From positions 1 to 27,847 of the IMG/VR virus record IMGVR_UViG_3300005805_000368: 27,847 bases of DNA; one strand, given 5' to 3'. This document shows, in pieces, positions 1 through 19,293 of this stretch. This stretch comes from a virus (taxonomy: Duplodnaviria; Caudoviricetes). Under the pieces are notes generated by a model that saw nothing but the letters and a program-made list of their open reading frames with translations, had not been told where the DNA came from and made no database searches. Positions within the stretch are counted from its first letter, which is position 1; every line of letters starts with the position of its first letter. The position numbers and the translations under genes are program-made.

Positions 1-108
1 TTCTTCCCCTTCTTTCCGCCATTCTTCCCATCCTTCGGTGGTGACGCATGTGCTGGTTGTGGCGGCGGTGGTTTGTATGGTTGCTCTGGACCAATTTGCA
101 TGGGCTAA
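1..108 (+). CDS. 3' end of a Pro/Phe-repeat protein with 4-Cys tail (partial; paralog of 10288..10863)
   Basis: Not in the ORF track. Frame 1 reads FFPFFPPFFPSFGGDACAGCGGGGLYGCSGPICMG* with TAA at 106-108. Same PFFP repeats plus 4-Cys tail as 10288..10863, followed by the same two downstream gene types. Confidence 0.85.
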   Translation, partial: FFPFFPPFFPSFGGDACAGCGGGGLYGCSGPICMG

Positions 109-165
109 TCAGCGATGCTATGGTTTGACAGGCAAAAGTGACGAGCAACAAAAAGGACGATAAAC

Positions 166-519
166 ATGACAGATGAAGCAACAGAAACCGTTAGGTATAA
201 ATTTGCTTTTATTGTTGATGGTGACGTCGGAATGGTGACGCTTATCAATCAGCAGGAAGACCAGATGAAGTATGTGAACTGCCTAAGAAACAACCCCGAG
301 ATTGTGGAAGTAAAGCAAGACCATAAATTATTGCCCATCAGGTTTGATTTTGTAAATGATGGTGTCGTGAACCTATTCATGGAGTTTCCAAACGCTCCTT
401 CCCATGCGAGATTCATAGCGTGTCTCCGAAGCAATCCGACAATTATTGAGGTGGAACCTTCCAACCCTGTCAGGGCTGGGTGGACATATGACGGAACCAA
501 TTTCAATGCTCCAGAATGA
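166..519 (+). CDS. Hypothetical protein with internal duplication and C-terminal GWTYDGTNF motif (tail-fibre-assembly-like; paralog of 9854..10270)
   Basis: AAGGA RBS upstream; two related halves ending CLRNNPEIVEV and CLRSNPTIIEV; GWxYDGxxF motif; ATGA overlap with next gene. Confidence 0.75.
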   Translation: MTDEATETVRYKFAFIVDGDVGMVTLINQQEDQMKYVNCLRNNPEIVEVKQDHKLLPIRFDFVNDGVVNLFMEFPNAPSHARFIACLRSNPTIIEVEPSNPVRAGWTYDGTNFNAPE

Positions 520-743
520 GTGCTTGGAAACAATTCAAAGAGGCAATGGCATCTGAGGGAAAGCCCTGGGATTTACTTTACCCAACTAAATACGCCACCC
601 AAGAGGTTGCCTCGGCAAGATACGAAATTTGCTCGCAGTGTCCAGAGTTCATTGAACTCACAAAGCAATGCAAAAAATGTATGTGTTTTATGATTTTAAA
701 AACAAAAATAGAACATGTAAGGTGCCCACTTGATAAGTGGTAG
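516..743 (+). CDS. Small 6-Cys protein, DUF6171-like (paralog of 9633..9857)
   Basis: RYEICSQC-x9-CKKCMCFM..KTK...CPLDKW; ATGA-coupled to the upstream gene. Confidence 0.8.
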   Translation: MSAWKQFKEAMASEGKPWDLLYPTKYATQEVASARYEICSQCPEFIELTKQCKKCMCFMILKTKIEHVRCPLDKW

Positions 744-757
744 TCTCATAACAGTTT

Positions 758-1471
758 ATGAGCATCTACGACGAAAACGAGAATCCGTGGTTCACGAAAG
801 ATAGGTCGGAAACCGCGTCCAATAGGGTTCCAAGAGTTGTCACTGAAACAATTACAGCCGAAAATCCTGGACTGGGATTAAATATATACCAAAACACGTT
901 TTCCCTTGAAGATGCAAATAGGTATATCAATATCCTTGAGTCGAATTTGACTGGCAATAAAACATACAAATGGAATGATGCATGCGTGACGAACTCTCTC
1001 ACTCCGATAAAAAAGGCGAGGGATTGTTCTGATTTTAAATACAAGCCTCAAAACTTAGGACCGAGGAACGAGCACAACTCTCAACTTATTGACCTTCATC
1101 ACGAAATATACGAGAAACTCAAGTTTTGTATAGATGATTATGCTAAATACTGGGGGATTAATGTTGTTTATTACGAAGCGTTTAATTTTGTTAAATACGA
1201 AGGAGAAGGCAAGCACTTCAACATACACGCAGACCACGGACCCGCATACAACTGCACGGTTTCTGCCGTCATCTACATCAACGACGACTACGAAGGTGGA
1301 GAAATAGAATTCCCGAGACTTAACGGATACATTCACAAGCCCAAAGTCGGCGATATTGCAATTTTTCCTTCAAATTACATTTACGAGCACGCATCGCTCC
1401 CAATGAAGTCGGGAACAAAGTATTGTGTGGTTGTCATGACCGACATAAATGAACTGGGGCATAAACAATGA
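758..1471 (+). CDS. 2OG-Fe(II) oxygenase, prolyl-4-hydroxylase-like (#1)
   Basis: HAD, YINDDYEGGEIEF, FPSNYIYEH, SGTKY: HxD...H triad with Lys at H+10. Confidence 0.9.
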   Translation: MSIYDENENPWFTKDRSETASNRVPRVVTETITAENPGLGLNIYQNTFSLEDANRYINILESNLTGNKTYKWNDACVTNSLTPIKKARDCSDFKYKPQNLGPRNEHNSQLIDLHHEIYEKLKFCIDDYAKYWGINVVYYEAFNFVKYEGEGKHFNIHADHGPAYNCTVSAVIYINDDYEGGEIEFPRLNGYIHKPKVGDIAIFPSNYIYEHASLPMKSGTKYCVVVMTDINELGHKQ

Positions 1472-2244
1472 GCGACAAATATAACCTCGCAATATTTAGA
1501 CCGTTTAGACCGTGGCTACATAAAGACAGCAGATCTGCCCCAGCAACAGCGCAAAGCGCAACTCCTAAATGGTACAAAGATGCAGACATTTTTGCAAAAG
1601 ACCTAAATGGTGAATACTACAAAGCGCCGAAAGAAATGTGTCCATTCCCTAAAGAGGGAACCGTAGACGACTATGGGAAAATCCCGACATGGAAAGCCTG
1701 TCCTGCAATTTTGGATGCATTTTCGACTGGGTATGTACTTAGAACTCCGTGCGAATTGACATTCTTCAAAAATGCAGAGGGAATAATTGATGTCAAAGTC
1801 GAGAGTGAACAATTCAAAGATTTCTGTACGTCAAGACCACCGATGCCACAATTTGAACATCCACGTGGTTACTACGAACATCACTTTGCATGGTTCTGTG
1901 ACTGGGGCTTGGAATTACCAGAAGGCTACAGTGCCTTATTTATGACACCAATGAATAGGTTTGATCTTCCGTTCTTGAACACCACGGGGATTGTAGATTC
2001 GGACAAAGTTCATCTGCTTGGAAGTTTCCCATTTTTTATCGCCGAAGGCTGGGAGGGAGCGATACCTGCGGGTACCCCGTATCTTCAAATTCTCCCTTTC
2101 AAGAGAGAGGATTGGGAACACAAAGTGGAGATGTTGGAACCATCCGAAATGCAGTCCAGATACATGAACAACGCCAACTTTTACCGACAACCAGACGGCG
2201 GCGTGTATAAAAGTAAAGTTTGGTCAAGAAGAAAGTATAAATAG
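1468..2244 (+). CDS. Conserved phage hypothetical protein, distantly DUF6065-like
   Basis: TWKACPAILDAFSTGY, PEGYSALF..P.N, GIVDSD and GTPYLQILPFKRE resemble the layout of 2916..3626; ATGA-coupled. Confidence 0.6.
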   Translation: MSDKYNLAIFRPFRPWLHKDSRSAPATAQSATPKWYKDADIFAKDLNGEYYKAPKEMCPFPKEGTVDDYGKIPTWKACPAILDAFSTGYVLRTPCELTFFKNAEGIIDVKVESEQFKDFCTSRPPMPQFEHPRGYYEHHFAWFCDWGLELPEGYSALFMTPMNRFDLPFLNTTGIVDSDKVHLLGSFPFFIAEGWEGAIPAGTPYLQILPFKREDWEHKVEMLEPSEMQSRYMNNANFYRQPDGGVYKSKVWSRRKYK

Positions 2245-2253
2245 GGGCATCAG

Positions 2254-2919
2254 ATGCAAACATGGACGGAAAAAATTGATTTGGGTAACGGTATCAAGTG
2301 CTACAGGAACATAATCAAGCCTGAATTTGATGTCATCGGCAGACTTGAATCAAACCTTAAGCCGATTGGTGACAATACGGGGTACAGTTGGCAGCCAGCG
2401 TATGTTGGATATCAACAATTGATGCCCGAGTACAGGGATTGCGCCGACTTCAAGTTCAAAAAGTCTGATATTGAAAATGACAAAAGCCAAGTTAGTTTAA
2501 ATCTTCAGTCGCTATGGCAAGACATATATGATTCCGCTTTTCCTGCCGTCGAAAACTACAGGGCTGAACACAACATAATGCCTTTGAAATACTGGGAGGC
2601 AATGAACTTTATTAAGTACAACCCAGGTCAACACTTCATGGAACACTCTGACCATGGATTTTCCTATAACTGCACCGTTTCTTTGGTGGGGTATGTTAAC
2701 GATGATTATGAAGGCGGGGAGTTGTTTTTTAGATTACAGAATCTAAAAATAAAAGCACTTGCTGGAGACCTCTATGTCTTTCCCTCAAATTTTATGTACC
2801 CACATCAAGCCATGCCAGTAATCTCTGGCACAAAATATTCAATCGTTACCATGCTCGATTACAGCAAAAAATATCACACACCAGACATGTATGACCCGAA
2901 ATGGAACGATGAACAATGA
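2254..2919 (+). CDS. 2OG-Fe(II) oxygenase, prolyl-4-hydroxylase-like (#2; closest paralog of #1)
   Basis: HSDHG..YNCTVS, YVNDDYEGGELFF, FPSNFMYPH, SGTKY. Shares RDCxDFK and EAxNFxKY with 758..1471. Confidence 0.9.
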   Translation: MQTWTEKIDLGNGIKCYRNIIKPEFDVIGRLESNLKPIGDNTGYSWQPAYVGYQQLMPEYRDCADFKFKKSDIENDKSQVSLNLQSLWQDIYDSAFPAVENYRAEHNIMPLKYWEAMNFIKYNPGQHFMEHSDHGFSYNCTVSLVGYVNDDYEGGELFFRLQNLKIKALAGDLYVFPSNFMYPHQAMPVISGTKYSIVTMLDYSKKYHTPDMYDPKWNDEQ

Positions 2920-3626
2920 TTGAAATATCTGTAGAAAAAACAAATGATTCAATTTTTGAAATTTCACAGATGTCCGTAAAAAGGAACTGGATGGACGAAA
3001 CATCCGAAAGGCACGCATACAGGTGCTTTCCAGTTACGCAGGCAAATGTTGTCGGGTGGAGCCTTTCCTGCACGAAAGACATAATTTTTACATGGGACGG
3101 CATTAATGACCAGACACCAGATCATCTGATAATTACTAGCCCTACGGGGGCGTATGCAGGCAGGGGTCAGTCATCCGTAAGTTTTAGCACTGGATTAATC
3201 TTCAGAACCACCAATAACGTGAGTATTTTGACAATTAATCCAGTCAACTACTTCAACGATGATTTTGAAACAATGTCAAATTTGATTAGTACTTCATTTT
3301 ATGACAGTCCACTTCCGCTGGCAATAAAAGCAAAAAAAGCCAACGTGGAGACACGAATAGTCGCTGGAACACCTATTGCCACGATAATCCCCATTTCCCT
3401 GACCGAACTGAATCATTCGTCAATCAGTATTACTGAATACTCAGACCCAGAAAATCTGCGACGAAAAGCAAGTACCGAATACGGAGAAGCCGCTCAAAAG
3501 TTGAATATTTCGGGGAAATTTACCGACTGGTATAGGGACGCTGTAAACGAGAAAAATGAGCCCTTGGGGGAGCATGAGGTAAAAGTGTTAAGATTGTATG
3601 TCCACAACACAACAAAACCAAAGTAA
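2916..3626 (+). CDS. DUF6065-family protein
   Basis: RNWMDET..HAYRCFPVTQANVVGWSL is the N-terminal motif I recognise for DUF6065; GTPIATIIPI; ATGA-coupled. Confidence 0.7.
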   Translation: MIEISVEKTNDSIFEISQMSVKRNWMDETSERHAYRCFPVTQANVVGWSLSCTKDIIFTWDGINDQTPDHLIITSPTGAYAGRGQSSVSFSTGLIFRTTNNVSILTINPVNYFNDDFETMSNLISTSFYDSPLPLAIKAKKANVETRIVAGTPIATIIPISLTELNHSSISITEYSDPENLRRKASTEYGEAAQKLNISGKFTDWYRDAVNEKNEPLGEHEVKVLRLYVHNTTKPK

Positions 3627-3662
3627 ATATGGGTTTTAAGAGTATGCAGGGAGAATAATTTC

Positions 3663-4460
3663 ATGGGAATCAAGCCGTTATATGACATTGGTTTACACTC
3701 AGCCGACGGGCAACCTAATTTTTTGCATCAGTTCAAAAATAAAGTGACGCTAGTTGTGAATACTACAGTCGGGTGTGGTAACGCCAATCAGTTGGAGATT
3801 CTCCAAATACTTCAAGACACATACGGCGGAGATGATTTTCAGGTAGTTGCCATTCCAACCAATGACTACTGTGGTGTCGGCATTACCAAGGGCAAATGGT
3901 CGCAAGGCATTACTTGTGGAGCGGACTCAAAAGCATACGGCGAAGATGTCTATGGAACCACTTTTCAATACTCTGAAATGGTTACGTCAAATCCAAACGA
4001 GGGCGCCAATGACCTGAGCGAGCATAAAGGTGATAGTTCTGTAAATGGGTTGGGTCAACCGAGACAGGAAACTCATGAACTGTATCGTGAAATTGAAAAT
4101 CAAATATATGCCTATTTTGCAAAACAAAAAGAACTAGGCATTCCAGATAGAAACGGCTATTTGTCACCTTGGCTAAATCAACCTATTTTTAACGGTTCCG
4201 AGCAGGGCGGGAACTTTGAAAAGTATCTCGTTGATAGAGATGGGTATGTAGCAAATTGGTTCCCGTGCACGACATTAAATTACGATATTGAAAGAACCCT
4301 GAAAGAAGCCCTCATAGAAGAAGGAATTACTTTCGGCATGGGTGAAGGCAGAACCCCAGAAGTATTTGAAGAGGAATTTGCTGTGGTTCGCCAAAATATT
4401 GAAGAGATGATGATGGGGGGTATGTCAATTATAAACCCAAAGAATAACCAAATTCCATGA
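3663..4460 (+). CDS. Divergent glutathione-peroxidase-like (thioredoxin-fold) protein
   Basis: KVTLVVNTTVGCG (Cys38, TGT codon), FQVVAIPTNDY (cf. FPCNQF), GNFEKYLVDRDG (cf. WNFEKFLV); GGAG RBS. Confidence 0.75.
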   Translation: MGIKPLYDIGLHSADGQPNFLHQFKNKVTLVVNTTVGCGNANQLEILQILQDTYGGDDFQVVAIPTNDYCGVGITKGKWSQGITCGADSKAYGEDVYGTTFQYSEMVTSNPNEGANDLSEHKGDSSVNGLGQPRQETHELYREIENQIYAYFAKQKELGIPDRNGYLSPWLNQPIFNGSEQGGNFEKYLVDRDGYVANWFPCTTLNYDIERTLKEALIEEGITFGMGEGRTPEVFEEEFAVVRQNIEEMMMGGMSIINPKNNQIP

Positions 4461-5134
4461 TGGTTCCAGAACAAGCATCGGTGGTTTTTAGAAAGCCGTC
4501 GATAACTCCTTCTGGTTTTTTTGGTGATGGGGCAGAAAATATTGTTGAATTAGAAAACTTCATGACGCAAGAAGAGATGGAGTTTTTGGAAAAAGCCGCA
4601 AAATCTTTGACAATATGGGACGTAACGCAAAGCCATGTGAATGAAAACGGCACAGTCGTATACGATTCTGACTACTGGAAAGACAGGGTCGCAACACAGC
4701 CAACTTTGGATAAAAACGATCCGACAATATCTCCAGTGATTAGTGGTTTATTTCAAAGACTAAAACCAATTGTTGAGGAATTTTATAAAGTTAAAGTAAT
4801 TCCAACTGGCACAACTATTGTTAGATGGCTTCCTGGACAATTTCAAAAACCTCACGCCGATAAAGAACTACACGAAGGTCCAGATGCAGGACTTCCAAAT
4901 GATTTTCCAAATTATGACCTGTCAAGTCTTTTCTATCTAAACGAAGATTATGAAGGGGGGGAACTATATTTTCCAAATCAAGGAGTCAAGTTCAAACCCA
5001 AAAAAGGCGCTGCGTATTTCTTCCCTGGGGATATGAGATATATACATGGCGTAACAGAGGTGATTAGTGGCATCAGATTTACTTGCCCATTTTTTTGGGA
5101 GATAGTAGAGCACACAGGGGAAAGAAAACCGTGA
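4457..5134 (+). CDS. 2OG-Fe(II) oxygenase, prolyl-4-hydroxylase-like (#3)
   Basis: PHAD, FYLNEDYEGGELYF, FFPGD..YIHGVTEVISGIRFT (Arg at H+10). Confidence 0.9.
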   Translation: MMVPEQASVVFRKPSITPSGFFGDGAENIVELENFMTQEEMEFLEKAAKSLTIWDVTQSHVNENGTVVYDSDYWKDRVATQPTLDKNDPTISPVISGLFQRLKPIVEEFYKVKVIPTGTTIVRWLPGQFQKPHADKELHEGPDAGLPNDFPNYDLSSLFYLNEDYEGGELYFPNQGVKFKPKKGAAYFFPGDMRYIHGVTEVISGIRFTCPFFWEIVEHTGERKP

Positions 5135-5166
5135 CGGGGGGATAGTCCCAAGTTTAGGAAACTCAA

Positions 5167-5826
5167 ATGTGGAATAAAAATATATATCAAACATATGAGT
5201 GCGATTTTGACGAACTACATGAGTCTTTCAAAAAATGTTGTGACCTATGGAAAAGCACATATTCGGATTGGGATTATCATTTTAGAAATTCTGAAGAAAG
5301 ACGAGAAGATGTAATAGACATTTTGTGCCTTTCTCCAGATGAGACCAAAATATATGACGGCTATACGGGGGTAATTCAAGCGGACATTTGGAGATATGCG
5401 GTGACTTCTGCCAATGGGGGCATGTATGCGGATTTGGATTCCATTCCAGTATCAAACATAGAGCCCATTCTTTGCGAACTGGATATAAATATAGAATTGG
5501 TCGCATTGCCAGACGGATATCAGATTGGAGGACATCCTGGCTCAAATAACTGTAACTTCATTTTGAAAGCAGAAAGCGAAATAGCCATGAGTCTGCTGTC
5601 TGATATGAAAAAATATTTTTGTATAAATGCTGAACGACTTAACAGTAATTTAGAAATTAGAAAATTAAAAACTGCTGAATTATTTGCGGATACAACCGTA
5701 TATTACAGATCAAAAGTGGCGCAAATATTAGATTCAAAATATGTGCTTCACGGTGAAGGATTTAAACCGCCACAGGAATATAGGACCAGATATGAAAAAA
5801 CAGTACTTGATAACATGTTTAAATAA
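5167..5826 (+). CDS. Glycosyltransferase, GT32/OCH1-like with DxD motif
   Basis: KNIYQTY, QADIWRY, GGMYADLDS signature; AGGA RBS. Confidence 0.8.
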   Translation: MWNKNIYQTYECDFDELHESFKKCCDLWKSTYSDWDYHFRNSEERREDVIDILCLSPDETKIYDGYTGVIQADIWRYAVTSANGGMYADLDSIPVSNIEPILCELDINIELVALPDGYQIGGHPGSNNCNFILKAESEIAMSLLSDMKKYFCINAERLNSNLEIRKLKTAELFADTTVYYRSKVAQILDSKYVLHGEGFKPPQEYRTRYEKTVLDNMFK

Positions 5827-5895
5827 CAGGTTTATAGCAATATTTGCTATCATTCACACGTATTTAATAAAGTATGATTTGTCAGGAAGCACCAA

Positions 5896-6651
5896 ATGAA
5901 CCTCAACAACCAAAAACGACTAACCAAAGACATCGTTGTTTACGAGAACTTCATTGATGATGAAACTGCCTCAAAATTAATAAGAGTTCTAGACAGGCAT
6001 GCCGAATTGGGAAAACTCGAGTGGACCCCAATATCTTTTTATGAGTCCTATTCGTCTACGCTTCCACAAGATGATGACGAAATTGTCATAGATGAAGGTC
6101 TTCCACCAACGATATTTTCCGAAATCAAGACGGGCATCATTAATGCGGTCGCATCAGTCCACAATCTTGATGTATCAACAATAAACCAAATTGGTTACCA
6201 CACACAAAAATGGGAACCAGGCGCATACGCCAGAATTCATTCGGACAACACAGACGAAAAAGGAAACTCAGGCGCGTTCACCAGAAGTCGGTATGCCGCG
6301 TTTCTGTATCTTAACGACGACTTCAAGGGTGGGCTTTTACGATTTCCGAGTCAGCAAATAAGTATTGAGCCAAGGACTGGCATGCTCGCCGCTTTTGACG
6401 GTGGTTTTAACAACATGCATGAAGTGACGCTCATTTCCGACGGCGTCAGATACACATTGGGTTCGTTTTGGGACGACCGAGACGAAAGCGCCTACCCGCA
6501 GGAATTGCGTGACGCTTGGGCTAAAGAAATGGAGCAGACGAGGGAGTTTCAAGCAAAAGAAAAAGCCGAATGGCAAGAACTTTTGAAACAGGGATACAAA
6601 TTAGACCAAGACGGCAATAAGTACAAAGTCAAGGACGGCGCAAATGATTAA
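5896..6651 (+). CDS. 2OG-Fe(II) oxygenase, prolyl-4-hydroxylase-like (#4)
   Basis: IHSD, FLYLNDDFKGGLLRF, NMHEVTLISDGVRYT. Confidence 0.9.
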   Translation: MNLNNQKRLTKDIVVYENFIDDETASKLIRVLDRHAELGKLEWTPISFYESYSSTLPQDDDEIVIDEGLPPTIFSEIKTGIINAVASVHNLDVSTINQIGYHTQKWEPGAYARIHSDNTDEKGNSGAFTRSRYAAFLYLNDDFKGGLLRFPSQQISIEPRTGMLAAFDGGFNNMHEVTLISDGVRYTLGSFWDDRDESAYPQELRDAWAKEMEQTREFQAKEKAEWQELLKQGYKLDQDGNKYKVKDGAND

Positions 6652-7303
6652 CGATTTTTTAATTCAACTTAAGACAAATGGGTTGGAATTTGAGCAAGTT
6701 ACCGACGAACTAATATGGGTCAAAAACTTCATAACACAAGATGAGTTGGATGAAGTAAAACAATTCATAGGGCAGACTACGCAAAAAGATTGGGAAACCC
6801 ACTATATGTCCAGTGTTGTTTCTTTTTGTATGCTCAAGTTTGGGCGAAGCGATATTGACAATTTGGTCGCAGAAGGCAAATTTGAGATTACTCAAGGCTG
6901 GGCAGATAAAACGATAAGCATTCAACAAACGAAAGTTCATCGAACGGTTTATGATCGTCTTTCTTCCATGCTCTTCAAATGTGACAAATCACTGGAGTTA
7001 ACTGGCTTATCCACCGTGCAGCGATTACCATCGGGAACAGAATTGAAATCCCATGTTGACCAAGACACAGACCCTTCAATTAGGTATGCATCAGTAATAT
7101 ACCTAAACGACGATTATGCTTCTGGGGAAATATTCTTTAAAAATCTTGATGTTTCCCTGAGACCAAAACCAAGAGACCTTTTATTTTTTCCTGGCAACAG
7201 CAAGTACGAGCATGGGGTGAAGCCAGTTTCCGATGGTCCAACCAGATATGTCATAGTTGGTTTTGTAAAAGAAATAGGTTTTTATGATAGAAACAGATAT
7301 TAG
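6644..7303 (+). CDS. 2OG-Fe(II) oxygenase, prolyl-4-hydroxylase-like (#5)
   Basis: SHVD, IYLNDDYASGEIFF, FFPG..YEHGVKPVSDGPTRY. Confidence 0.9.
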   Translation: MINDFLIQLKTNGLEFEQVTDELIWVKNFITQDELDEVKQFIGQTTQKDWETHYMSSVVSFCMLKFGRSDIDNLVAEGKFEITQGWADKTISIQQTKVHRTVYDRLSSMLFKCDKSLELTGLSTVQRLPSGTELKSHVDQDTDPSIRYASVIYLNDDYASGEIFFKNLDVSLRPKPRDLLFFPGNSKYEHGVKPVSDGPTRYVIVGFVKEIGFYDRNRY

Positions 7304-7314
7304 GGAGAACTAAA

Positions 7315-8040
7315 GTGGAAAAAACAATTTTAGGAGAAAAAACTTACTACTACACCAACGCCATAGACAACTTTGACTTCTTTATGAAAACCCTCAAGGA
7401 ACTTGATTTAGATGAATACGTCGGGGAAGGCGGTGTCAATTTGTGGGAAACATGGACGTCATCCAACGACAATAATTTCATATATGGACAGACCAAGGTT
7501 TTTTCTATTGAGGCTATTGAAAATGCAAAAACTGAAACAAAAACTAAAAGCAAGTATATCTATGATGCTGTCATGAATACATTTTACAATGTTTGCAAAG
7601 ATTACGCATCATCAATTGGTGACCACGACGAGCCAAACCTTTTTCCAACATTTAACATCAAAAAGTACAATTCTGGATTGTCGATGGGGTCACACTTTGA
7701 CCAATTAGACGGTGACAATACGCTTAGGTATTCATTGGTCATGTATCTAAATGACGACTATGAGGGAGGGGAAATATCTTTTCAACTAAAAGATTACGAA
7801 GGTGGATGGACATCAAAAGACGGATGGACTCACGGAGCACCAGCAGTAAATTTGGATTACGAAACCGCTATAAAAGACAAATCCATAGATTTTGGGGTGA
7901 AACCAAAAGCCAATAGCGTCGTCATTTTTCCTTCTTCGGCTCCATATTTTCACACAGCGCACACCATAAAATCTGGATTTAAATATATGGTTCCAGGACA
8001 CTGGATTCATAATGACATGGATTTCAACAGGAATTCTTAA
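7315..8040 (+). CDS. 2OG-Fe(II) oxygenase, prolyl-4-hydroxylase-like (#6)
   Basis: GTG start after GGAG; SHFD, MYLNDDYEGGEISF, FPSSAPYFHTAHTIKSGFKY; ~35-aa insertion after GGEISF relative to its paralogs. Confidence 0.9.
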   Translation: MEKTILGEKTYYYTNAIDNFDFFMKTLKELDLDEYVGEGGVNLWETWTSSNDNNFIYGQTKVFSIEAIENAKTETKTKSKYIYDAVMNTFYNVCKDYASSIGDHDEPNLFPTFNIKKYNSGLSMGSHFDQLDGDNTLRYSLVMYLNDDYEGGEISFQLKDYEGGWTSKDGWTHGAPAVNLDYETAIKDKSIDFGVKPKANSVVIFPSSAPYFHTAHTIKSGFKYMVPGHWIHNDMDFNRNS

Positions 8041-8706
8041 ATGAAAACAGCAATAGTGACTGGGGCGAGCAAAGGCGTCGGACATCAAACGTGCAAAACC
8101 CTGTCGCAAAACGGATACCGAGTGATAGCAGTTTCACGAAATTTAGAAAGAATGAAATCGCTGCTGTCTGAAAACGTAGAAATTTACAAGATGGACATAA
8201 CAAATTTTGCGGAGATAAAAACATTTTTTGAACAATATAAAGACATCAGTTTGGATTTATTGGTAAACAATGCAGGAGGGGGGAGTAGCCCGACCCAAAT
8301 AATTGACGAATCTCCAGAAAATTTTAATTATGCATACAGTTTGAATGTCAGCGGACCGATGTATTTGTCAAAACTCTTTACGGTCAATCTTTCGAAATCG
8401 GAAAATCCCACCATTATTTTCGTCTCCTCAATTGGCGGAAAAGTTGCTTACGCTGGAGGGGGCAATTACACCAATGCGAAACGGGCTATTGGTGGCTTGG
8501 TTGACTCAATGCGTTTGGAATACCCTGCCTACGGAATCAAGATAACTGAAATATGCCCTGGCACAATTGACACCGTAGATGGTGAGCGGAGAGATATTGC
8601 GCTGACAGCAGAAGACATGGCTTGTGCCATAGCCTGGGTTGCGGAATTACCAAAACATGTGAACATCAATTATTTGGAAATGAATCACGTATTGAGCCGT
8701 AGGTAA
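8041..8706 (+). CDS. Short-chain dehydrogenase/reductase (classical SDR)
   Basis: VTGASKGVG, LVNNAG, SSIGG, YTNAK (YxxxK), ICPG. Confidence 0.92.
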   Translation: MKTAIVTGASKGVGHQTCKTLSQNGYRVIAVSRNLERMKSLLSENVEIYKMDITNFAEIKTFFEQYKDISLDLLVNNAGGGSSPTQIIDESPENFNYAYSLNVSGPMYLSKLFTVNLSKSENPTIIFVSSIGGKVAYAGGGNYTNAKRAIGGLVDSMRLEYPAYGIKITEICPGTIDTVDGERRDIALTAEDMACAIAWVAELPKHVNINYLEMNHVLSRR

Positions 8707-8726
8707 TCCAAGTAAAAACTATTTTA

Positions 8727-9632
8727 CTATAAACATATTTTTCCAGTTCTAAAATTCAAACCAGAAAACTCTTCGTAATCGTCTAGGGTTCTCGCCGTGC
8801 CAAGTGCTCCTTCGCCGACTATTCGTTCACTGAATATCCTTCTGTATTCTTCTTTTGATTCCTTGTCTTTGACTTGCCAAATGTCTGGATGGTCTATCCA
8901 GACATGGTGGCGTCGTACTTTGGCAAAAGGTTGTAGCGAATGATATAGATGCCAAACGCTGTGGGCGAATGGCATTACCAGGTCAAACCCATGGGTGAAA
9001 GCACGCGCTGCGATAAGTGGCTCTTCACCCCAGAAAGCAATCTTGGGATTTGGTTTAATGTGAGCAAACTCCCCAAGGGTGAAGATGTTGCCTCCTGATA
9101 CGGATTTGATGAAGCCGCAATCGTTTGAAAGCATTTTTGCGGTCTGTGTTGGAATCAATGTTTCTTCAAACTCTTTTATGTTTTCGCCAAACCAGATTCC
9201 CGTTTGATAAAAAGAGTGTTCGGCATATTGTTCTTTGCCGTTGTCATCGTAGATGTAATTAGCAGGGTATTGAGTAATGAGGGGTTTGGCTAAACCCATG
9301 TCTTGATATTTGGTGACAGCCTGAATACATATTTCATCCCAATTCTTTTCAAATCGCATATGTGCGTCAATTTGGAAGTAGTAATCTTCCCCGTCATAAA
9401 ACTCGTTGGCTATGTGTCTTGCTTTCTGTAGACCTATGTTTTCGGGGGCGATACTGGTCTTGATTGACACATTGGGTTTCTTGGCGACCACAACTTCGCC
9501 TTCGAATGCGACACAGTTGTGCACTCCGAAACGAATAGTGTTGTTTCCGCTTGACTGTTTGATGCAGTCTTTTATCGTCTTGGGGAGTTCAAAATCTCTG
9601 TAAGAGGGTATTTGAACGAATATTGATGACAT
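8727..9632 (-). CDS. GT60-like glycosyltransferase (Skp1-hydroxyproline / polypeptide GlcNAc-transferase, Gnt1-like)
   Basis: SIFVQIPSYRD, KARHIANEFYDGEDYYFQIDAHMRFEKNWD (DxH), FWGEE...RAFTHGFD, WHLY, GTARTLDDYEEFSG match the Gnt1/GT60 motifs as I recall them. Confidence 0.85.
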   Translation of the reverse strand: MSSIFVQIPSYRDFELPKTIKDCIKQSSGNNTIRFGVHNCVAFEGEVVVAKKPNVSIKTSIAPENIGLQKARHIANEFYDGEDYYFQIDAHMRFEKNWDEICIQAVTKYQDMGLAKPLITQYPANYIYDDNGKEQYAEHSFYQTGIWFGENIKEFEETLIPTQTAKMLSNDCGFIKSVSGGNIFTLGEFAHIKPNPKIAFWGEEPLIAARAFTHGFDLVMPFAHSVWHLYHSLQPFAKVRRHHVWIDHPDIWQVKDKESKEEYRRIFSERIVGEGALGTARTLDDYEEFSGLNFRTGKICL

Positions 9633-9857
9633 TCACCATTTGCCTATTGGACAGACGGCATTGGCAATTTTTGTTTTGAGAGCCATGAAGCATCCGCATT
9701 CCCTGCATTGTTTGGTGGCTCGTATAAGTCGTGGACAAGCATCACATATTTCCATGCGTTTGTGAGCAATGTCCCCGTCGGTGTGTTTTGCTGAATTAAG
9801 GGCATCCCATGGTCTTGTGTCGCCCAATTTCTTTTTGTATTCTTCCCATTTACTCAT
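9633..9857 (-). CDS. Small 6-Cys protein, DUF6171-like (paralog of 516..743)
   Basis: Start moved to ATG 9857 (ATGA overlap with the upstream stop). MSKWEEYKKK..PWD...RMEICDAC...TKQCRECGCFMALKTK...CPIGKW aligns end to end with 516..743. Confidence 0.85.
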   Translation of the reverse strand: MSKWEEYKKKLGDTRPWDALNSAKHTDGDIAHKRMEICDACPRLIRATKQCRECGCFMALKTKIANAVCPIGKW

Positions 9858-10270
9858 TGGTAAAACTTCTCTCCGTCCCATAACCATCCTGGGGTTTGCA
9901 CTGAAAGACAATTGTTTGTGCAATCGGGGGTCTGTTCAATGATGATTGGATTACTGGCGAGTATCGCATAATGGTCTTCATCGGATTCTTCAAAAACTAT
10001 TGTCTCGTATGATTCGCCAGAGCCAACGCCGACCGTGAGGTTGTTCAAATCAACTATGTTCCCCTGACCGCCAAGAAGCAAATCAGCGTAAGGAGAATAA
10101 ACGATGTCTATGAATTCGACCGTGTTGCCAATGATGAACAACAAAACCCTGCCTTTGTTATCTTGGAATTCAGGACTGTGGAGTGCGTACTCGCTTTCGC
10201 CTACAGACACCCACCTATAGCCGCGCTCCACACCGTGATTGAGAATCATGCCACTAGTTGAAGTAATCAT
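9854..10270 (-). CDS. Hypothetical protein with SNPIIIE and GWLWDGEKF motifs (paralog of 166..519)
   Basis: C-terminus ILASNPIIIE...PGWLWDGEKF versus CLRSNPTIIE...AGWTYDGTNF; same position in the cassette; AGGA RBS. Confidence 0.75.
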   Translation of the reverse strand: MITSTSGMILNHGVERGYRWVSVGESEYALHSPEFQDNKGRVLLFIIGNTVEFIDIVYSPYADLLLGGQGNIVDLNNLTVGVGSGESYETIVFEESDEDHYAILASNPIIIEQTPDCTNNCLSVQTPGWLWDGEKFYQ

Positions 10271-10287
10271 TGGACTATCCTACATCC

Positions 10288-10863
10288 TTAGCATTGTGTG
10301 TTGAAGGCTTGGAAAGTCGCCACGCAACCTGTGTTCACCTGATATTCCGCACAGGCGCCGTTTGCCGCTGCCAACGCAGTACATGTGAAAGTTGGAGGCG
10401 GAGCGGCGGTGGTGGTCGTAGTAGTGAACTCTGGGAAGAATGGGAAGAACGGTGGTGTCGTGAATTCTGGGAAGAATGGGAAGAACGGGAAGAACGGTGG
10501 TGTCGTGAATTCTGGGAAGAACGGGAAAAACGGTGGAGTCGTGAACGTCGGGAAAAATGGTGGTGCGACTGGCGTTACCGCATTTGAAGCACTAGAAACC
10601 GCACTTACTCCGTAGCCACTAATTGTCGTAACCGTAAAAGTGTAAGAAGTGCCGTTACTCAATCCCGTGATAGTCAAGGGGGAACTTGCGCCCGATGCGG
10701 TTAGTCCGCTTGGGCTAGAAGTTGCCACATAGGTTGCAACACCTTTGCCGTCATGGGCAGGAAGCGTAAAAGTAACTGTTGCTTGAGCGTTACCAGCCGA
10801 AGCACTGACCGATGTAGGTGGGTCGACGTACTTTCCTTGACTAGATGTATTGCCTGGAATCAC
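10288..10863 (-). CDS. Fibronectin type III domain + (TT)PPFFPFFP(EF) repeats + Thr/Pro linker + 4-Cys tail; probable tail-associated protein
   Basis: PPTSVSASAGNAQATVTF..P...TITGLSNGTSYTFTV is an Fn3 pattern; repeats at aa 101-146; GTG start overlaps the stop of the tail-fibre-like gene (GTGA). Confidence 0.85.
   Translation of the reverse strand: MIPGNTSSQGKYVDPPTSVSASAGNAQATVTFTLPAHDGKGVATYVATSSPSGLTASGASSPLTITGLSNGTSYTFTVTTISGYGVSAVSSASNAVTPVAPPFFPTFTTPPFFPFFPEFTTPPFFPFFPFFPEFTTPPFFPFFPEFTTTTTTAAPPPTFTCTALAAANGACAEYQVNTGCVATFQAFNTQC
10426..10563 (-). repeat. Coding tandem repeats: 9-nt PFF unit nested in 27-45-nt (TT)PPFF(PFF)nP(E/T)F units
   Basis: The + strand shows repeated gggaagaa(c/t) and ggtggtgtcgtgaattctgggaagaa; four units carry 1, 2, 3 and 2 PFF copies in protein order. 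Confidence 0.95.
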
Positions 10864-11744
10864 GAGGCACTCAAATCACCCATCAGCATCCAAATGTTCG
10901 TGTCACACTTAAGGAGCGTCGCCGACGAGTATTGCGCCCGTAAGTAAGCGCCAGGGGTCGCATAAATAGTTACAGTTCCTGAAACGGGAATCACTTGTGT
11001 TTTTCCTGTTCCGTATTGAATGATATGAATTTGTGACCCAACAGGGAAGGCAACAGAAGCGTTCGTGGGAACCGTAACAGTATTGGCTGTTGATGTTACA
11101 TTCATTTTAATAAACTTGTTTTTATCGGTCAAAGCAAGCGTGTAAGACGAACTTTTTTCGTCAATTGTTGCGTCTGCCAGTTTTCCCAAGTCAATAGCAG
11201 CAGAATCATTGATATCGGCGTTAACGATAACGCCAGAACCAATAGCGGTTACTCCAGCACCTGTAATTGTTACATCGCCAGAAATTGTCGTGGCGGTAAC
11301 AACACCAGTAGTAGTCGTTCCAAGCAGAACCTGTCCTGCTGTTGCATTGGCAAGTTTGCTGTGGGCAATTGCCGCCGACGAATTAATGTCCGCATTAACG
11401 ATTGTTCCGTCAGCAATTTTGGCTGAAGTAACAGCATCATCGGCAAGTTTTGCTGTGGTGACCGCAAGTGAGGCAATTTTGGCTGTAGTAATTTCGCCGT
11501 CTTCTACCTGTGCGCCAATTTCAACCCAATTGTTTGTGTTGTCGTATAAATAAAGTTTGTTGTCGGAAAAAAGGTAGGCGAGACGACCCGCGCTCAAAGA
11601 CGGTTCGCCAGCACCCCCAAAAGCAGCATCGCGGGCAGCGCTGTCCGCGAAATATGCGACAACCTGATCCATTAAGTATGTGTTTACTTCGGTTGCGGTT
11701 AATTGGCTACCAGCAGTAAACAGTTTGACGCCTGCGCCAGCCAT
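10860..11744 (-). CDS. Tail fibre / minor tail protein-like
   Basis: 10-aa repeats (DGEITTAKIA, SLAVTTAKLA, DDAVTSAKIA, DGTIVNADIN); C-terminal YTLALTD...VTVPTNASVAFPVG...LRAQYSSATL...GDL domain of a type I recognise from phage tail proteins; GAGG RBS. Confidence 0.7.
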   Translation of the reverse strand: MAGAGVKLFTAGSQLTATEVNTYLMDQVVAYFADSAARDAAFGGAGEPSLSAGRLAYLFSDNKLYLYDNTNNWVEIGAQVEDGEITTAKIASLAVTTAKLADDAVTSAKIADGTIVNADINSSAAIAHSKLANATAGQVLLGTTTTGVVTATTISGDVTITGAGVTAIGSGVIVNADINDSAAIDLGKLADATIDEKSSSYTLALTDKNKFIKMNVTSTANTVTVPTNASVAFPVGSQIHIIQYGTGKTQVIPVSGTVTIYATPGAYLRAQYSSATLLKCDTNIWMLMGDLSAS

Positions 11745-11847: not shown

Positions 11848-14800
11848 TTGCTTCATCGGTTATTTTCTCTTAAGCGCTTCTTCGCGTGCATCATCCCTTT
11901 GTCTCTGCTCGCACTTTTTATCCCTTTTGCTTCCCCAGCCCAAGCAGTGAGTAACTGCGATACTGCCTACTCTGCCTCCAACTTCACCCTCGGGGGAGTT
12001 GCCTCTGACTCCTCTGGAACCGTGACCTTGACACCCAATGCTGGTAGTCAATTTGGCGCTATTTGGAACAAATCCAGAGTAAACCTTTCTAGCGATTTTT
12101 GTGTTATTGCAGATGTTTATCTTGGCGCCGACGACTACGGTGCTGATGGTCTTGCATTTGTGATGCAACCAAACTCGGTTGCCGCTGGAAGCACTGGTGG
12201 CGGTCTTGGCTATGCAGGCATAACTCCGTCCTTTGCGGTTGAATACGACACTTATTACAACGGTGGAGATTTATACAACGACCATGTTGCGCTAATGAAA
12301 AATGGCAATGTAGTCTCTCACAACTTATGGGGTGTAAATGCCGTTGATGTAGGGAACATTGAAGATAACCAGTGGCATAAAACTAAAATTTATTGGGACT
12401 CGGTAGATAACAAAGTTTCAGTTTGGCTTGATAAAAATGCTGACGGTGACACCGACGATTTTGGGGAAACTCTGTTCGACGCCATATCTGCAAACCTTGA
12501 GGCAAACTTTAGTGGCGAGGTGTATTGGGGTTTTACCGCCGCAACTGGTGGAGCAGTCAATCTTCAACAAGTAAGAAATATCACCTACACGGGCGTTGCT
12601 CGCACCAATGCTCCCCCCACAGCAAGCACGGAACCAGTACTTAATGATTCAGTTATTATCGGTCAAGCGACTGTAATCCCGTTTGTTGTCGCTGACGACG
12701 AAACAACACAAGCCCAATGGTCTTTTACTAAGACATCTTCAAACACAACTGTTGTTCCACTCAATGCAATTTCTATTTCTATGTCGAGCGCGACTAATGG
12801 AACTATAAGTATTACGCCAGCCTCAGCAGGTAGTTCAACTGTAGTAATAGGTATTCAAGATGCTGATGGCTCTGCGCTTTCCTACACCCTAAGCGTTACG
12901 GCAACTCCACCCTCACTGCAAGTTACAAGTCTTCTTGATGACGGTTCAAGCGGAACTCTTCGTTGGGCAATTACTCAAGCCAATGCAACTTCTGGTGGAA
13001 TCTATGATGCAATATCTTTTGATGCCGATGGCGTCATCACGCTGACTAGCGCTCTACCGCAGATAACACAAAGTCTCACGGTCACTGGAAACGGCAGAAC
13101 ACAAACCGTGATTGATGGCAACAACCTATACCGACCGTTCAATGTCGCATCGGGAAGAACATTGACAATATCCAACATGACCCTCAAACAGGGTCAAGCG
13201 ACTAATGGCGGTTTAATATTCAACGGTCAAGGAACAGTTAGCGCAACCAATATTCGTTTCACAGGAATGAATGGCGGCTCTGCCGTGTTTAACAACAACG
13301 GAGTAAGCACGGCGACGTACACAAACTGTACTTTTGATTATCTCAATGTTGGTATTGCTGGCGACTACGGTTCAACTCCACAACTCGCTGCTGGTGTCAC
13401 GACTTGGGCAAATGAACAAGACTCAGTGTTTCAAAACAAGACCTATGTAGTCAACAGCGTATTCACAAACAACACTTACGGCATCAATAACTATCGTTTT
13501 ACCAAAATTCAAAACTCGCAATTTACGAACAATAGTTATGGAGCCAATGTCACTGGCTTGAATCGCACTCAAATACTTAATTCAACTTTTACGAGTAACG
13601 GCATTGGTATTTACCACAACTCTTGGATTCCAACTACATTCAACATGGGGACAGACAATCGTCTGATAACTGGTAACACATTTACCAACAACAGCATTTC
13701 AATATATCTAGACGACACATACAACAACGGTCAAAAAAATCAGTCGTGGTCAACAATAACTGGCAACACCTGGGATGCACTCGGCGTCTGGGTTCGTTAC
13801 TACCAGTGGAACGGAACAACCAACGCAATTGGAACTGCTCGCCCCTACACCACTGGAACCGTGTTTGCGCAGAGTTCAAATACGTTTCCAAACACCATCG
13901 GTGAGCCAACTAATTTGACGGTTACCAAAAGCAACTCAAATATTATTCTTGATTGGGATGCGCCCAGTGAAGGCGGGTATCTTCCAGAGCGTTATGCAAT
14001 CTTTTTTACGACAGGCGACCTTGCTGGTTGGGGTGTGGCAACTGGAAATGTCGGTGACGCCAATGCCCTAAATACCGAATACACATTTACTGAATCTTTC
14101 TTTAATGGATTTGGTGTTGAGTCTGGCTCAACTTGGCGATTCAAAATCCGTTCAGACAACGACACCTACAGTAAATATTCTGCTTTTACTAGTGAAGCAT
14201 CAATTCCAATTGGAACTCCGCCACCAACTACTACAAGTAGCACCACGACCACTACTAGCACCACGACCACTACTAGCACCACAACTACGACTGTTTATGT
14301 TCCGCCAGTTGATTCTGGTGGAAGCGAGGAGGACGACTCGTCACCAACAGGTACCACTTTGCCACCAGAGCCCACGCCAGAGCCTGAACCAGAAGCCACT
14401 TTGCCGACGCTCCCAGAAGAAACAGAGCCTGAAGACGAAGGAACAACCATAACAGTTCCAGTATTTCCCGTAATACCAGAAGAGGAAGAAGAAGCAAGTC
14501 CAGTAACCACATACCCTGATTCTAACGACGGTCCAGACGATAATGACTCAAACACAATCCTTTTACCAAATAACCCTGACCCCGATGACATTGCAGATGC
14601 GATTGAGGAAGTTGACTTTACGGAAATTTCAGACAGCGACTTTGACAAAACGATTGATGCCGTATTTGACAACATAGAAAACCCCGAAGACGTAGCCGAT
14701 GTGATTGGCTCGTTCCTTGAAGCAGATATTTCTGACGAGCAATTTGAAGCGGTGCTTGACAAAGTATTTGAAGATATTTCAGACACAGAAAAAGCAACTG

Positions 14801-15924
14801 CAGTTATTACATCTTTGCTATCTGAAAACTTAAGCGACGAAGAACTTGGTTCGGTTATGGAAGCAGTATTCAACGAGGAAGCAACCGTCGACGAGATGGC
14901 TGCGGTTGTGGGCGACCTTCTTGACAAAGACCTAGATGTTCAAGAACTTGACGCAATGTTTGAAGCAGTGTTTGATGAAGAACTTTCAGACAAAGAAACA
15001 ATTGACCTCATTGTGGATGTGTTGGCGGAAGACCTCACCGCAGAAGCACTTGGTTCTGCTTTGAATGCGGTGTTTGACGAAGAAGTAAGCAACGAAGTTT
15101 TGGTTGCAACTTTCACTGCTGTTCTGGGTAACGAACTTGACGGGGATTCCGTCGAGATAATCGTAGAAGTCCTTGAATCTGACTCGATTTCTGGAGAACA
15201 AGTAGCAACGGTTGTCACATTAATCATCGAACAAGAGGGTGGTGTTGATGCGGAACAAGCAACGGAATTGGCAACAAGCGCAAAAGTGCTGGAAAGCATC
15301 AGTGGAGAACAGGCAACGGAAGTGTTTGATGCGATCGCTGTTGCCGAGGTCTCGGAAGAAGAGGGTGTTGAAATTGCCGAGGCACTTGCGGAAGCGCCTA
15401 ATGATGTAAAAGAGGCGTTTGAAGAAGAAATCAATGTGTTCGCAGGTGTGTTTGACACCTATATTGCTTTGGGTTCAAATATTGATGTTGGCGACCGTCG
15501 AACTGTAATCGCCGTAGGAGCCGCTGTGAGCCTCGCAGGCGCTGCCGTGGCGATTGGTGGGGTAAGTCCGTCATCTGGTGGTGGAGCACCACCAGGAGGC
15601 TCTGGAAGCCCTTCAGGGCATAACAATGATGTCGCTCGCAAGCCAGAAGAAGAAGAGATGAACGGAGAACTCGCTTGGGACGGTGTGGAGTGGATAAAGC
15701 AGTTAAGTATTTTCAGGTATAATAATGGGGTTAAAATTTTAGATTGGGGTCTTTTTATGAAGAAATTTACATTTGGTCTTATGAATTTGGGTTTCACTAT
15801 TTCGGGGTCGCTGGTTGTCTACTTGACGCTTTCGGGGACTATCCAAAGAATTGCTGGAATCTCATCCGTTCTTGCGCTTGTCGGCGCAATGTATCTACAC
15901 ATGCGAGAACCTGACAACAATTAA
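11848..15924 (+). CDS. Large secreted, membrane-anchored protein: signal peptide, L-type lectin-like domain, Ig-like domain, parallel beta-helix, Fn3-like domain, Thr/Pro/Glu stalk, acidic helical repeats, C-terminal hydrophobic segments
   Basis: Hydrophobic leader ending AQA; GADGLAFVMQ, FAVEYDTY, VYWGFTAATGG (legume lectin); GTLRWAI and FTNN repeats; PTNLTV..LDWDAP; AVF-D/N-E repeats at ~34-aa spacing; hydrophobic C-terminal segments. The TTG start is uncertain. Confidence 0.8.
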   Translation: MLHRLFSLKRFFACIIPLSLLALFIPFASPAQAVSNCDTAYSASNFTLGGVASDSSGTVTLTPNAGSQFGAIWNKSRVNLSSDFCVIADVYLGADDYGADGLAFVMQPNSVAAGSTGGGLGYAGITPSFAVEYDTYYNGGDLYNDHVALMKNGNVVSHNLWGVNAVDVGNIEDNQWHKTKIYWDSVDNKVSVWLDKNADGDTDDFGETLFDAISANLEANFSGEVYWGFTAATGGAVNLQQVRNITYTGVARTNAPPTASTEPVLNDSVIIGQATVIPFVVADDETTQAQWSFTKTSSNTTVVPLNAISISMSSATNGTISITPASAGSSTVVIGIQDADGSALSYTLSVTATPPSLQVTSLLDDGSSGTLRWAITQANATSGGIYDAISFDADGVITLTSALPQITQSLTVTGNGRTQTVIDGNNLYRPFNVASGRTLTISNMTLKQGQATNGGLIFNGQGTVSATNIRFTGMNGGSAVFNNNGVSTATYTNCTFDYLNVGIAGDYGSTPQLAAGVTTWANEQDSVFQNKTYVVNSVFTNNTYGINNYRFTKIQNSQFTNNSYGANVTGLNRTQILNSTFTSNGIGIYHNSWIPTTFNMGTDNRLITGNTFTNNSISIYLDDTYNNGQKNQSWSTITGNTWDALGVWVRYYQWNGTTNAIGTARPYTTGTVFAQSSNTFPNTIGEPTNLTVTKSNSNIILDWDAPSEGGYLPERYAIFFTTGDLAGWGVATGNVGDANALNTEYTFTESFFNGFGVESGSTWRFKIRSDNDTYSKYSAFTSEASIPIGTPPPTTTSSTTTTTSTTTTTSTTTTTVYVPPVDSGGSEEDDSSPTGTTLPPEPTPEPEPEATLPTLPEETEPEDEGTTITVPVFPVIPEEEEEASPVTTYPDSNDGPDDNDSNTILLPNNPDPDDIADAIEEVDFTEISDSDFDKTIDAVFDNIENPEDVADVIGSFLEADISDEQFEAVLDKVFEDISDTEKATAVITSLLSENLSDEELGSVMEAVFNEEATVDEMAAVVGDLLDKDLDVQELDAMFEAVFDEELSDKETIDLIVDVLAEDLTAEALGSALNAVFDEEVSNEVLVATFTAVLGNELDGDSVEIIVEVLESDSISGEQVATVVTLIIEQEGGVDAEQATELATSAKVLESISGEQATEVFDAIAVAEVSEEEGVEIAEALAEAPNDVKEAFEEEINVFAGVFDTYIALGSNIDVGDRRTVIAVGAAVSLAGAAVAIGGVSPSSGGGAPPGGSGSPSGHNNDVARKPEEEEMNGELAWDGVEWIKQLSIFRYNNGVKILDWGLFMKKFTFGLMNLGFTISGSLVVYLTLSGTIQRIAGISSVLALVGAMYLHMREPDNN
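14238..14282 (+). repeat. 18-bp tandem repeat (tagcaccacgaccactac x2.5) encoding STTTTT
   Basis: Units start at 14238, 14256 and 14274 (partial). Confidence 0.9.
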
Positions 15925-19044: not shown

Positions 19045-19293
19045 GTGAAAGTCTGGATTGATCAAGACCTGTGTACTGGCGATGGGCTGTGCGCAGAGAT
19101 AGCACCAGATGTTTTCATCATGCTGGAGGACGGGTTAGCGTACGTTCAGGAGGGTGGGAAGGTCTTCGCCAAATCCAGAGGGAACCCAGAGGGCGCCGCT
19201 GGTGTCGCTTCTTTTGCGGACGACAGACTTGATGATGTCATAAGCGCGGCTGAGGATTGTCCAGGAGAGTGCATTTTTATAGAGGCAGACTAA
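19045..19293 (+). CDS. Single-cluster ferredoxin (CxxDxxC...CP)
   Basis: KVWIDQDLCTGDGLCAEIAPDVF...AAEDCPGECI; GTG start. Confidence 0.92.
   Translation: MKVWIDQDLCTGDGLCAEIAPDVFIMLEDGLAYVQEGGKVFAKSRGNPEGAAGVASFADDRLDDVISAAEDCPGECIFIEAD

Follow-up and report, generated by a model that had tools for sequence, protein, structure and literature searches.

Viral protein hydroxylation and glycosylation are already known, and the closest described systems frame the locus considered here, a gene cluster at positions 1–11,744 of the tailed-phage record IMGVR_UViG_3300005805_000368 (the whole record, 27,847 bases, is called the window). In this cluster, six prolyl 4-hydroxylase (P4H)-like 2-oxoglutarate (2OG)-Fe(II) oxygenase genes, two DUF6065-like genes and two glycosyltransferase genes lie between the stub of one proline/phenylalanine (Pro/Phe)-repeat gene and a second, complete one. 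According to a passage in PMC7019647, the P4H of chlorovirus PBCV-1 acts on Pro peptides in vitro (Eriksson et al. 1999). Like that enzyme, the oxygenases of the window are small, virus-encoded and of P4H type. PBCV-1, however, is a eukaryotic virus with one such enzyme, whereas the window is from a bacteriophage with six oxygenase subfamilies plus DUF6065 in fixed order, following a Pro/Phe repeat. Iyer et al. 2010 (PMC2938197) read cyanophage dioxygenase arrays (10 genes in Syn9) as metabolite pathways with halogenases, and predict hydroxylation of co-encoded collagen-like and tail-collar proteins in bacterial operons. Those systems and the window have in common that phages carry unrelated 2OG-Fe(II) oxygenases in arrays, and that a low-complexity or tail protein encoded alongside is proposed as the substrate; the Pro/Phe repeat, DUF6065 and the repeat-matched swapping of enzymes are, in contrast, features of the window's family.

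For the glycosyltransferases, the nearest comparison is the Skp1 pathway of Dictyostelium and Toxoplasma, in which, as outlined in PMC8724618, PhyA acts first and a GT60 polypeptide alpha-N-acetylglucosamine (GlcNAc)-transferase second. The enzyme types (P4H-like and GT60) and the cytoplasmic setting are alike, but Skp1 is modified at one Pro of a folded protein in an obligatory order, whereas the GT60 clade of the window is distributed independently of P4H-like genes. TcOGNT1 of T. cruzi, a mucin-type GT60 initiator, is described in PMC9472816 as making GlcNAc-alpha-O-Thr. The window GT60 resembles it as a PF11397 protein with a DxH motif and a Thr-rich tract in a neighbouring gene; unlike TcOGNT1, a Golgi enzyme acting on surface mucins, it is a soluble phage protein with predicted donor and acceptor. 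Mycobacteriophage Che8 has glycosylated virions and encodes glycosyltransferases (PMC11256854, citing Freeman et al. 2023), and the window, probably also from an actinobacterial phage, shares with it phage-encoded glycosyltransferases, virion decoration being only proposed for the window. The Che8 glycans sit on the capsid, whereas hydroxylases and a candidate repeat substrate are particular to the window. Glycosyltransferases in the tail islands of pelagimyophages are interpreted in PMC7029224 as host-surface enzymes. In the full-text literature, with subscription journals largely uncovered, we found no account of a Pro/Phe repeat cassette, of DUF6065 or of a phage GT60, and in the literature searched the hydroxyproline (Hyp)-Phe-Phe motif occurs only as a synthetic tripeptide fibre.

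Our analysis favours, at slightly better than even odds, two independently travelling modules that meet at a tail-gene block, namely an oxygenase/DUF6065 cassette whose probable target for hydroxylation is the Pro/Phe repeat, and a GT60 which probably adds N-acetylhexosamine (HexNAc) to Thr and not to Hyp. The observations behind it are the genes, their motifs, their order and their co-occurrence. The genes are listed below; counts out of 81 refer to complete cassettes, dereplicated and selected for oxygenase O2 plus a repeat.

1–108, + strand: 35-codon 3' remnant of a PP/FF-repeat gene, including a Cys/Gly-rich tip, truncated by the contig end
166–519, + strand: 117-aa small protein, phrog_14370 (no assigned function), of a type usually trailing repeat genes
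516–743, + strand: 75-aa CxxC...CxxC protein, DUF6171-like, phrog_13558, accessory (14/81 cassettes)
758–1471, + strand: O1a, P4H-like 2OG-Fe(II) oxygenase, core, H157-A-D159...H211 (O1 in 81/81 cassettes)
1468–2244, + strand: D1, DUF6065-like, predicted dUTPase-like fold, invariant W35/C78/G88
2254–2919, + strand: O1b oxygenase, H131-S-D133...H184, in related loci mostly immediately upstream of D2
2916–3626, + strand: D2, DUF6065 (PF19541, E 2.7e-26)
3663–4460, + strand: glutathione-peroxidase (GPx)-like protein (GSHPx, first 68 profile positions only), accessory (15/81 cassettes)
4457–5134, + strand: O2 oxygenase, H133-A-D135...H197, the best-conserved member (median 84% identity, 64 kin)
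5167–5826, + strand: GT32-like glycosyltransferase (PF04488), DLD at 89–91, a rare insertion (2/81 cassettes)
5896–6651, + strand: O3 oxygenase (64/81 cassettes)
6644–7303, + strand: O5 oxygenase (31/81 cassettes)
7315–8040, + strand: O4 oxygenase (39/81 cassettes)
8041–8706, + strand: short-chain dehydrogenase (SDR, adh_short), final cassette gene (22/81 cassettes)
8727–9632, – strand: GT60-type polypeptide HexNAc-transferase (PF11397, E 3.4e-33), of a clade associated with Thr tracts
9633–9857, – strand: second CxxC...CxxC protein, DUF6171, phrog_13558
9854–10270, – strand: 138-aa small protein without family match
10288–10863, – strand: 191-aa protein with FN3 domain (14–93), 47-residue Pro/Phe/Thr repeat, Thr run and Cys-rich tip
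10860–11744, – strand: 294-aa tail-fibre/minor-tail-like protein (phrog_8780, phrog_892), overlapping the repeat gene by 4 nt

The matching of repeat class and enzyme set is the best evidence for the repeat as substrate. The FN3-family scan covered 80 loci encoding 70 distinct proteins, of which 65 have room downstream; here O1 lies downstream of 37/37 PP/FF genes and of 0/28 genes with other repeats (n = 65), and YSFTP genes are followed by DUF6065 in five of six cases. Behind all 15 FGVF/FGF genes stands another oxygenase family (2OG-FeII_Oxy_5-like; Atlas score 0.96). A scan for the FGA pattern placed 40 of 80 loci in a tail/FN3 context, 36 of them with room, and in these 36/36 DUF6065 is the sole profiled gene downstream, with none of the profiled oxygenases. 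In the FN3-family scan the classes were assigned by regular expression, and two of its five rows labelled FGA are probably of FGVF type. As the enzyme set tracks the repeat class in sister genes, the repeat points to being the substrate.

The association extends across viral loci, where the PPFFPFFP-coding pattern occurs in an estimated ~1000 stored stretches. Counts from pattern scans take the first 80 loci each, later loci, which are without full flanks, being excluded; PP/FF and FFxPPx tracts were located by six-frame search. Among 79 repeat-pattern loci with flanks, a repeat open reading frame (ORF) is present in 78, oxygenases in 67 and DUF6065 in 65, followed by SDR (19), GT60 (4), GT32 (4) and GPx (2). 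The oxygenases form orthologous subfamilies in the usual order O1a-D1-O1b-D2-O2-(O6)-O3-O5-O4-(SDR), which the window keeps with GPx and GT32 as insertions. Of the 81 complete cassettes, 74 contain as many O1 genes as DUF6065 genes. When loci are anchored on the O2 motif, a PP/FF or FFxPPx tract accompanies it in 61/80, and in 55 of the 56 that contain a tail or FN3 gene; those without a tract mostly end within the cassette. Conversely, a control anchored on the C-terminal motif of the tail gene, in which the 50 of 80 loci having at least 7 kb downstream were counted, gave both elements in 30, neither in 19, the repeat only in one and the cassette only in none. In several of the loci with neither, the slot is occupied by a different aromatic repeat (PFGFT, FGA, FGVF, GFNP, FGHYSN). 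The co-occurrence foreseen for viral databases in the preliminary description, which had been made from the letters alone, is thus upheld for the oxygenase/DUF6065 cassette, which is not independent of the repeat, but not for GT60 (2/81 cassettes). A longer repeat pattern matched five times in 185,579 prokaryote genomes, always on contigs of metagenome-assembled genomes (1.8–17 kb); all five carry the same phage genes, ruling out a bacterial origin of the repeat.

The enzymes themselves are largely as first described. All six oxygenase ORFs exceed the curated cut-off of PF13640 (2OG-FeII_Oxy_3; 35.6–46.5 bits vs 27) and have the intact HxD...H triad together with K/R in the 2OG-binding strand; the GT60-like, GT32-like, SDR and GPx-like genes are present by profile, the last only in part. 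For the O1b profile, the best solved structures are prolyl 4-hydroxylases (E 8e-5; PiuC, E 0.009), while for O2, PKHD and P4H are tied at E 0.002, with prolyl 4-hydroxylase 5c5t in the PDB as a weak match (E 0.0024). The two genes described as DUF6065-like both match phrog_7084 and carry the W, C and G that are invariant over 300 DUF6065 sequences; of the two, only D2 matches the Pfam DUF6065 profile at E ≤ 0.01. The structural model of D1 (pLDDT 72, pTM 0.66) weakly matches trimeric dUTPases (Foldseek E 1.8e-4; TM 0.26 query, 0.44 target), and neither D1 nor D2 matches the Pfam dUTPase profile at E ≤ 0.01. Among 1504 longer-protein candidates, no DUF6065 fusion was found at E ≤ 0.001, which is weak evidence. 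We infer that DUF6065 may help tail appendages by binding or assembling their extended low-complexity chains, with catalysis by its Cys only putative. Strict Phe specificity of DUF6065 is ruled out by halovirus homologues beside Gly-rich adhesins. In three such loci (L796:4857-5693, L797:4857-5687 and L798:4857-5741, from the cultured haloviruses HRTV-8, HRTV-17 and HF2, respectively), a DUF6065-like gene is convergent with a tail fibre/adhesin block, offering a tractable DUF6065 system.

The dUTPase-like fold of D1, weak as the match is, also bears on whether the cassette produces or alters a target other than the repeat protein, be it a small molecule or a nucleotide, a receptor on the host that corresponds to the fibre tip, or parts of the translation machinery required by PP/FF-rich mRNA. 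The SDR and GPx-like genes in the cassette would fit such a target, as would the reading of cyanophage arrays as secondary-metabolite genes by Iyer et al. (PMC2938197) and faint Tet_JBP matches of two oxygenases, far under the cut-off. A diffusible product, however, does not account for an enzyme set that shifts as the repeat of a single orthologous gene changes; in addition, SDR (22/81) and GPx (15/81) are dispensable, and profile matches identified no precursor synthetase, transporter or kinase gene in the cassette of the window. We thus consider another target unlikely. Profile matches likewise revealed no protease family among the cassette genes, and the likeness to ribosomally synthesised and post-translationally modified peptides (RiPPs) appears confined to a precursor beside tailoring enzymes, with no leader-core release by proteolysis.

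The GT60 appears to follow a different rule. Its assignment is clear (PF11397, 116 bits vs 21, DxH motif D89-A-H91; a polypeptide N-acetylgalactosaminyltransferase match is faint, E 0.17). However, GT60 spans both Thr-specific mucin initiators (as presented in PMC9472816) and the Hyp-specific Skp1 enzyme (as presented in PMC8724618), so that family membership by itself points to neither acceptor. Applying one Thr-tract criterion to both GT60 clades, we found that of 80 loci fetched with the window GT60, 68 contain a Thr tract, none contains PP/FF and two contain O1, with O1 within 2.5 kb in 0/80. The four closest relatives of the window GT60 (70, 52, 44 and 44% identity) all come two or three genes after a gene for a poly-Thr protein, with the same small genes in between. 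Of the 12 genes nearest in sequence to the 191-aa gene, only L647 and L648 show this arrangement, and there the repeat is reduced to about one unit plus a Thr run. Among 164 repeat genes, GT60 is directly downstream in 3/7 with a Thr run and in 5/157 without. Given the Thr tracts in 68/80 loci and PP/FF tracts in 0/80, Thr glycosylation is likelier than a Skp1-like relay through Hyp, and the GT60 of the window more probably glycosylates Thr of the 191-aa protein than Hyp. A second Thr-rich candidate acceptor is a 1358-aa protein encoded at 11848–15924 (+) of the window, in which a legume-lectin domain (PF18483) is accompanied by a linker rich in Thr and Pro near 14230–14290 and by an acidic C-terminal half.

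The preliminary description had taken the Skp1 pathway as its model for the locus; in such a relay, the oxygenases would make Hyp, GT60 would add GlcNAc to it and GT32 would extend the glycan. All enzyme types are present and intact, the GT60 shares one gene run with the repeat gene, and five of the eight repeat genes with GT60 directly downstream have no Thr run. A second GT60 clade would fit such a relay better: its 80 loci comprise 5 with a Thr tract, 15 with PP/FF and 18 with O1, and its 23 best loci comprise 16 distinct sequences, several of them query seeds or near-copies, of which 11 have O1 no more than 2.5 kb away, including L733 behind a Thr-free PNF repeat. This O1-adjacent clade is, however, merely 24–26% identical to the window GT60, GT60 and GT32 each occur in just 2/81 cassettes, and the scan with the window GT60 found neither PP/FF tracts nor O1 close by. 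The relay is therefore not supported as the logic of this locus, and we judge it quite unlikely here. In seven loci the second-clade GT60 is directly beside O1 (L721, L722, L726, L727, L729, L733, L740), in some behind PPTFT or PNF repeats, and these are the best candidates for a phage Hyp-GlcNAc relay. A GT60 beside P4H-like genes should thus be checked for its clade before being read as a Skp1-type pathway. GT32 overall comprises nine distinct sequences, three near O2 and three near GT60.

Several observations weigh against the two-module reading. The P4H likeness is weak and common to PKHD/PiuC enzymes, DUF6065-like genes also occur beside Gly-rich halovirus adhesins without Phe repeats (24–30% identity, three genes from the adhesin in HF2 and HRTV-8/17), and hydroxyproline was not found in PBCV-1 virion proteins, according to a passage in PMC7019647. 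In cultured phages O2 gives only distant matches (14 records, best 28% over 81%), so that no cultured test system for the cassette emerged. One locus, L224, carries the cassette but shows no tract in the 4.2 kb upstream of it, and is a candidate true exception; another, L340, has the repeat and no cassette within the locus. As to GT60, most loci of the window-GT60 scan are distant (30–35% identity) and from other phage groups. Within the set of 12 nearest kin of the 191-aa gene, L644 (PPVT) and L649 (PT) have Thr tracts and no GT60 within 6 kb, and L646 and L650, where a second-clade GT60 stands four genes off, show PP/FF but lack a Thr tract. Finally, co-transfer of adjacent genes would likewise yield class-enzyme matching, and on the tree of the tail domain, where the labels require 9–10 changes, a kinship-corrected test left five independent pairs on supported branches, with the cassette following in 4–5 (p 0.0625–0.125). 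The repeat-cassette association is strong, yet not significant after kinship correction.

These last points would also suit mere linkage, in which repeat genes and oxygenase morons share a hypervariable tail island and move together with no substrate relation, as recombination would carry adjacent genes along. Against this stand the several repeat classes, each with its own enzyme set, the high conservation of orthologues (O2 median 84%) across complete-cassette loci of 31–50% GC, and the lack of cassette-only loci (0/50), so that we hold linkage alone to be very improbable.

In the favoured two-module reading, the six oxygenases and two DUF6065 proteins would hydroxylate the Pro/Phe repeat of adjacent tail-region proteins, each subfamily (O1, O2, O3, O4, O5) possibly acting at its own repeat position, with Pro C4 or C3 likeliest and the Phe beta-carbon possible. 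DUF6065 may hold or assemble the low-complexity chain and present it to O1, GPx, SDR and GT32 may be optional helpers, and GT60 would modify the 191-aa protein with HexNAc at its Thr pairs and Thr run. Because it is coupled to a tail-fibre-like gene, the repeat protein is presumably built onto the tail as a virion appendage, and modification would turn the repeat into a stiffened spacer, glycosylated in part, from the FN3 base to the variable Cys-rich tip. A bolder version, which we regard as possible but doubtful, is a programmable, RiPP-like tailoring of the tail appendage in freshwater phages, with a hypervariable slot (PPFF, FFxPPx, FGVF, FGA, YSFTP, PNF) served by matched enzymes, DUF6065 as a novel peptide-modifying enzyme or foldase that depends on Cys and has a dUTPase scaffold, two GT60 clades split between Thr and Hyp, and the PP/FF version as a natural Hyp-Phe-Phe polymer.

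Aquatic phages commonly carry arrays of P4H-like oxygenases with their substrate unassigned, and the repeat family offers a candidate. The repeat is short enough to synthesise, and sister repeats with other enzyme sets are built-in negative controls. If the proposal is true, bacteriophages tailor their own tail appendages by hydroxylation, DUF6065 obtains a first function, and the oxygenases are site-selective peptide hydroxylases.

The 191-aa protein, a candidate substrate of both modules, has 20 F, 16 P, 7 T, 3 E and 1 A in residues 100–146, directly followed by the Thr run, the repeat being one unbroken tract between FN3 and tip; such a Pro/Phe tract arose in 0/200 base-shuffled windows. 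Its reported coupling to the tail-fibre-like gene in one run with GT60 is confirmed by the 4-nt overlap and by gaps of -4, 17, -4 and 0 from the tail-fibre-like gene down to GT60. Both flanks had been described as PPFFPFFP-repeat genes; the left stub (1–108), however, lacks a literal PPFFPFFP. Judged from its position, as in most related loci, the stub probably belongs to the gene heading the oxygenase cassette. An exact-match scan of metagenome contigs for an extension of this gene returned no stretches, and in three of four runs examined contigs have further repeat-like letters beyond position 1.

Within the repeat at 10431–10500, samples differ, a 45-base unit being skipped in one run and small in-frame insertions occurring in others, through variation or assembler collapse. 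In five distinct sequences, a PP/FF-repeat gene behind a tail gene starts in one frame and continues in the +1 frame, changing at a common CGG-AA junction (L204 ~3740(-), L258 ~11280(-), L271 ~10740(-), L363, L738), a candidate conserved +1 frameshift. Many repeat genes (L005, L006, L019, L225, L257, L267, L319 and others) end in what we take to be a Hint-type self-cleaving domain in place of the Cys-rich tip. In L234, both cassette and repeat gene seem frameshifted into pieces, owing either to errors in sequencing or to decay of the two together.

The window is a whole viral record of ~20% completeness (CheckV), and its WhiB, VanY-type endolysin, holin-like and tail genes suggest a tailed phage of actinobacteria. 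Between 88 and 98% of sampled words from 700–10600 are present in 20 runs from seven studies, mostly of river, lake and other aquatic metagenomes, four runs possibly being the source sample; no RNA run is listed among those with these words. The oxygenase cassette (+) and the GT60 run (-) are convergent on opposite strands, and contigs span the SDR/GT60 junction in 4/4 runs examined from four studies; the convergent arrangement is therefore not a mis-assembly, and a chimera at this junction is ruled out. A promoter/terminator scan of the window stayed at chance level (30 vs 24.6 ± 5.2 and 9 vs 11.4 ± 3.4). Elsewhere, the window encodes a 4Fe-4S ferredoxin (19045–19293, +), an HslV/proteasome-like peptidase (24791–25411, +) and, distant from the cassette, a seventh oxygenase of TauD/CsiD type (20308–21078, -) that adjoins a MarR-like regulator gene.

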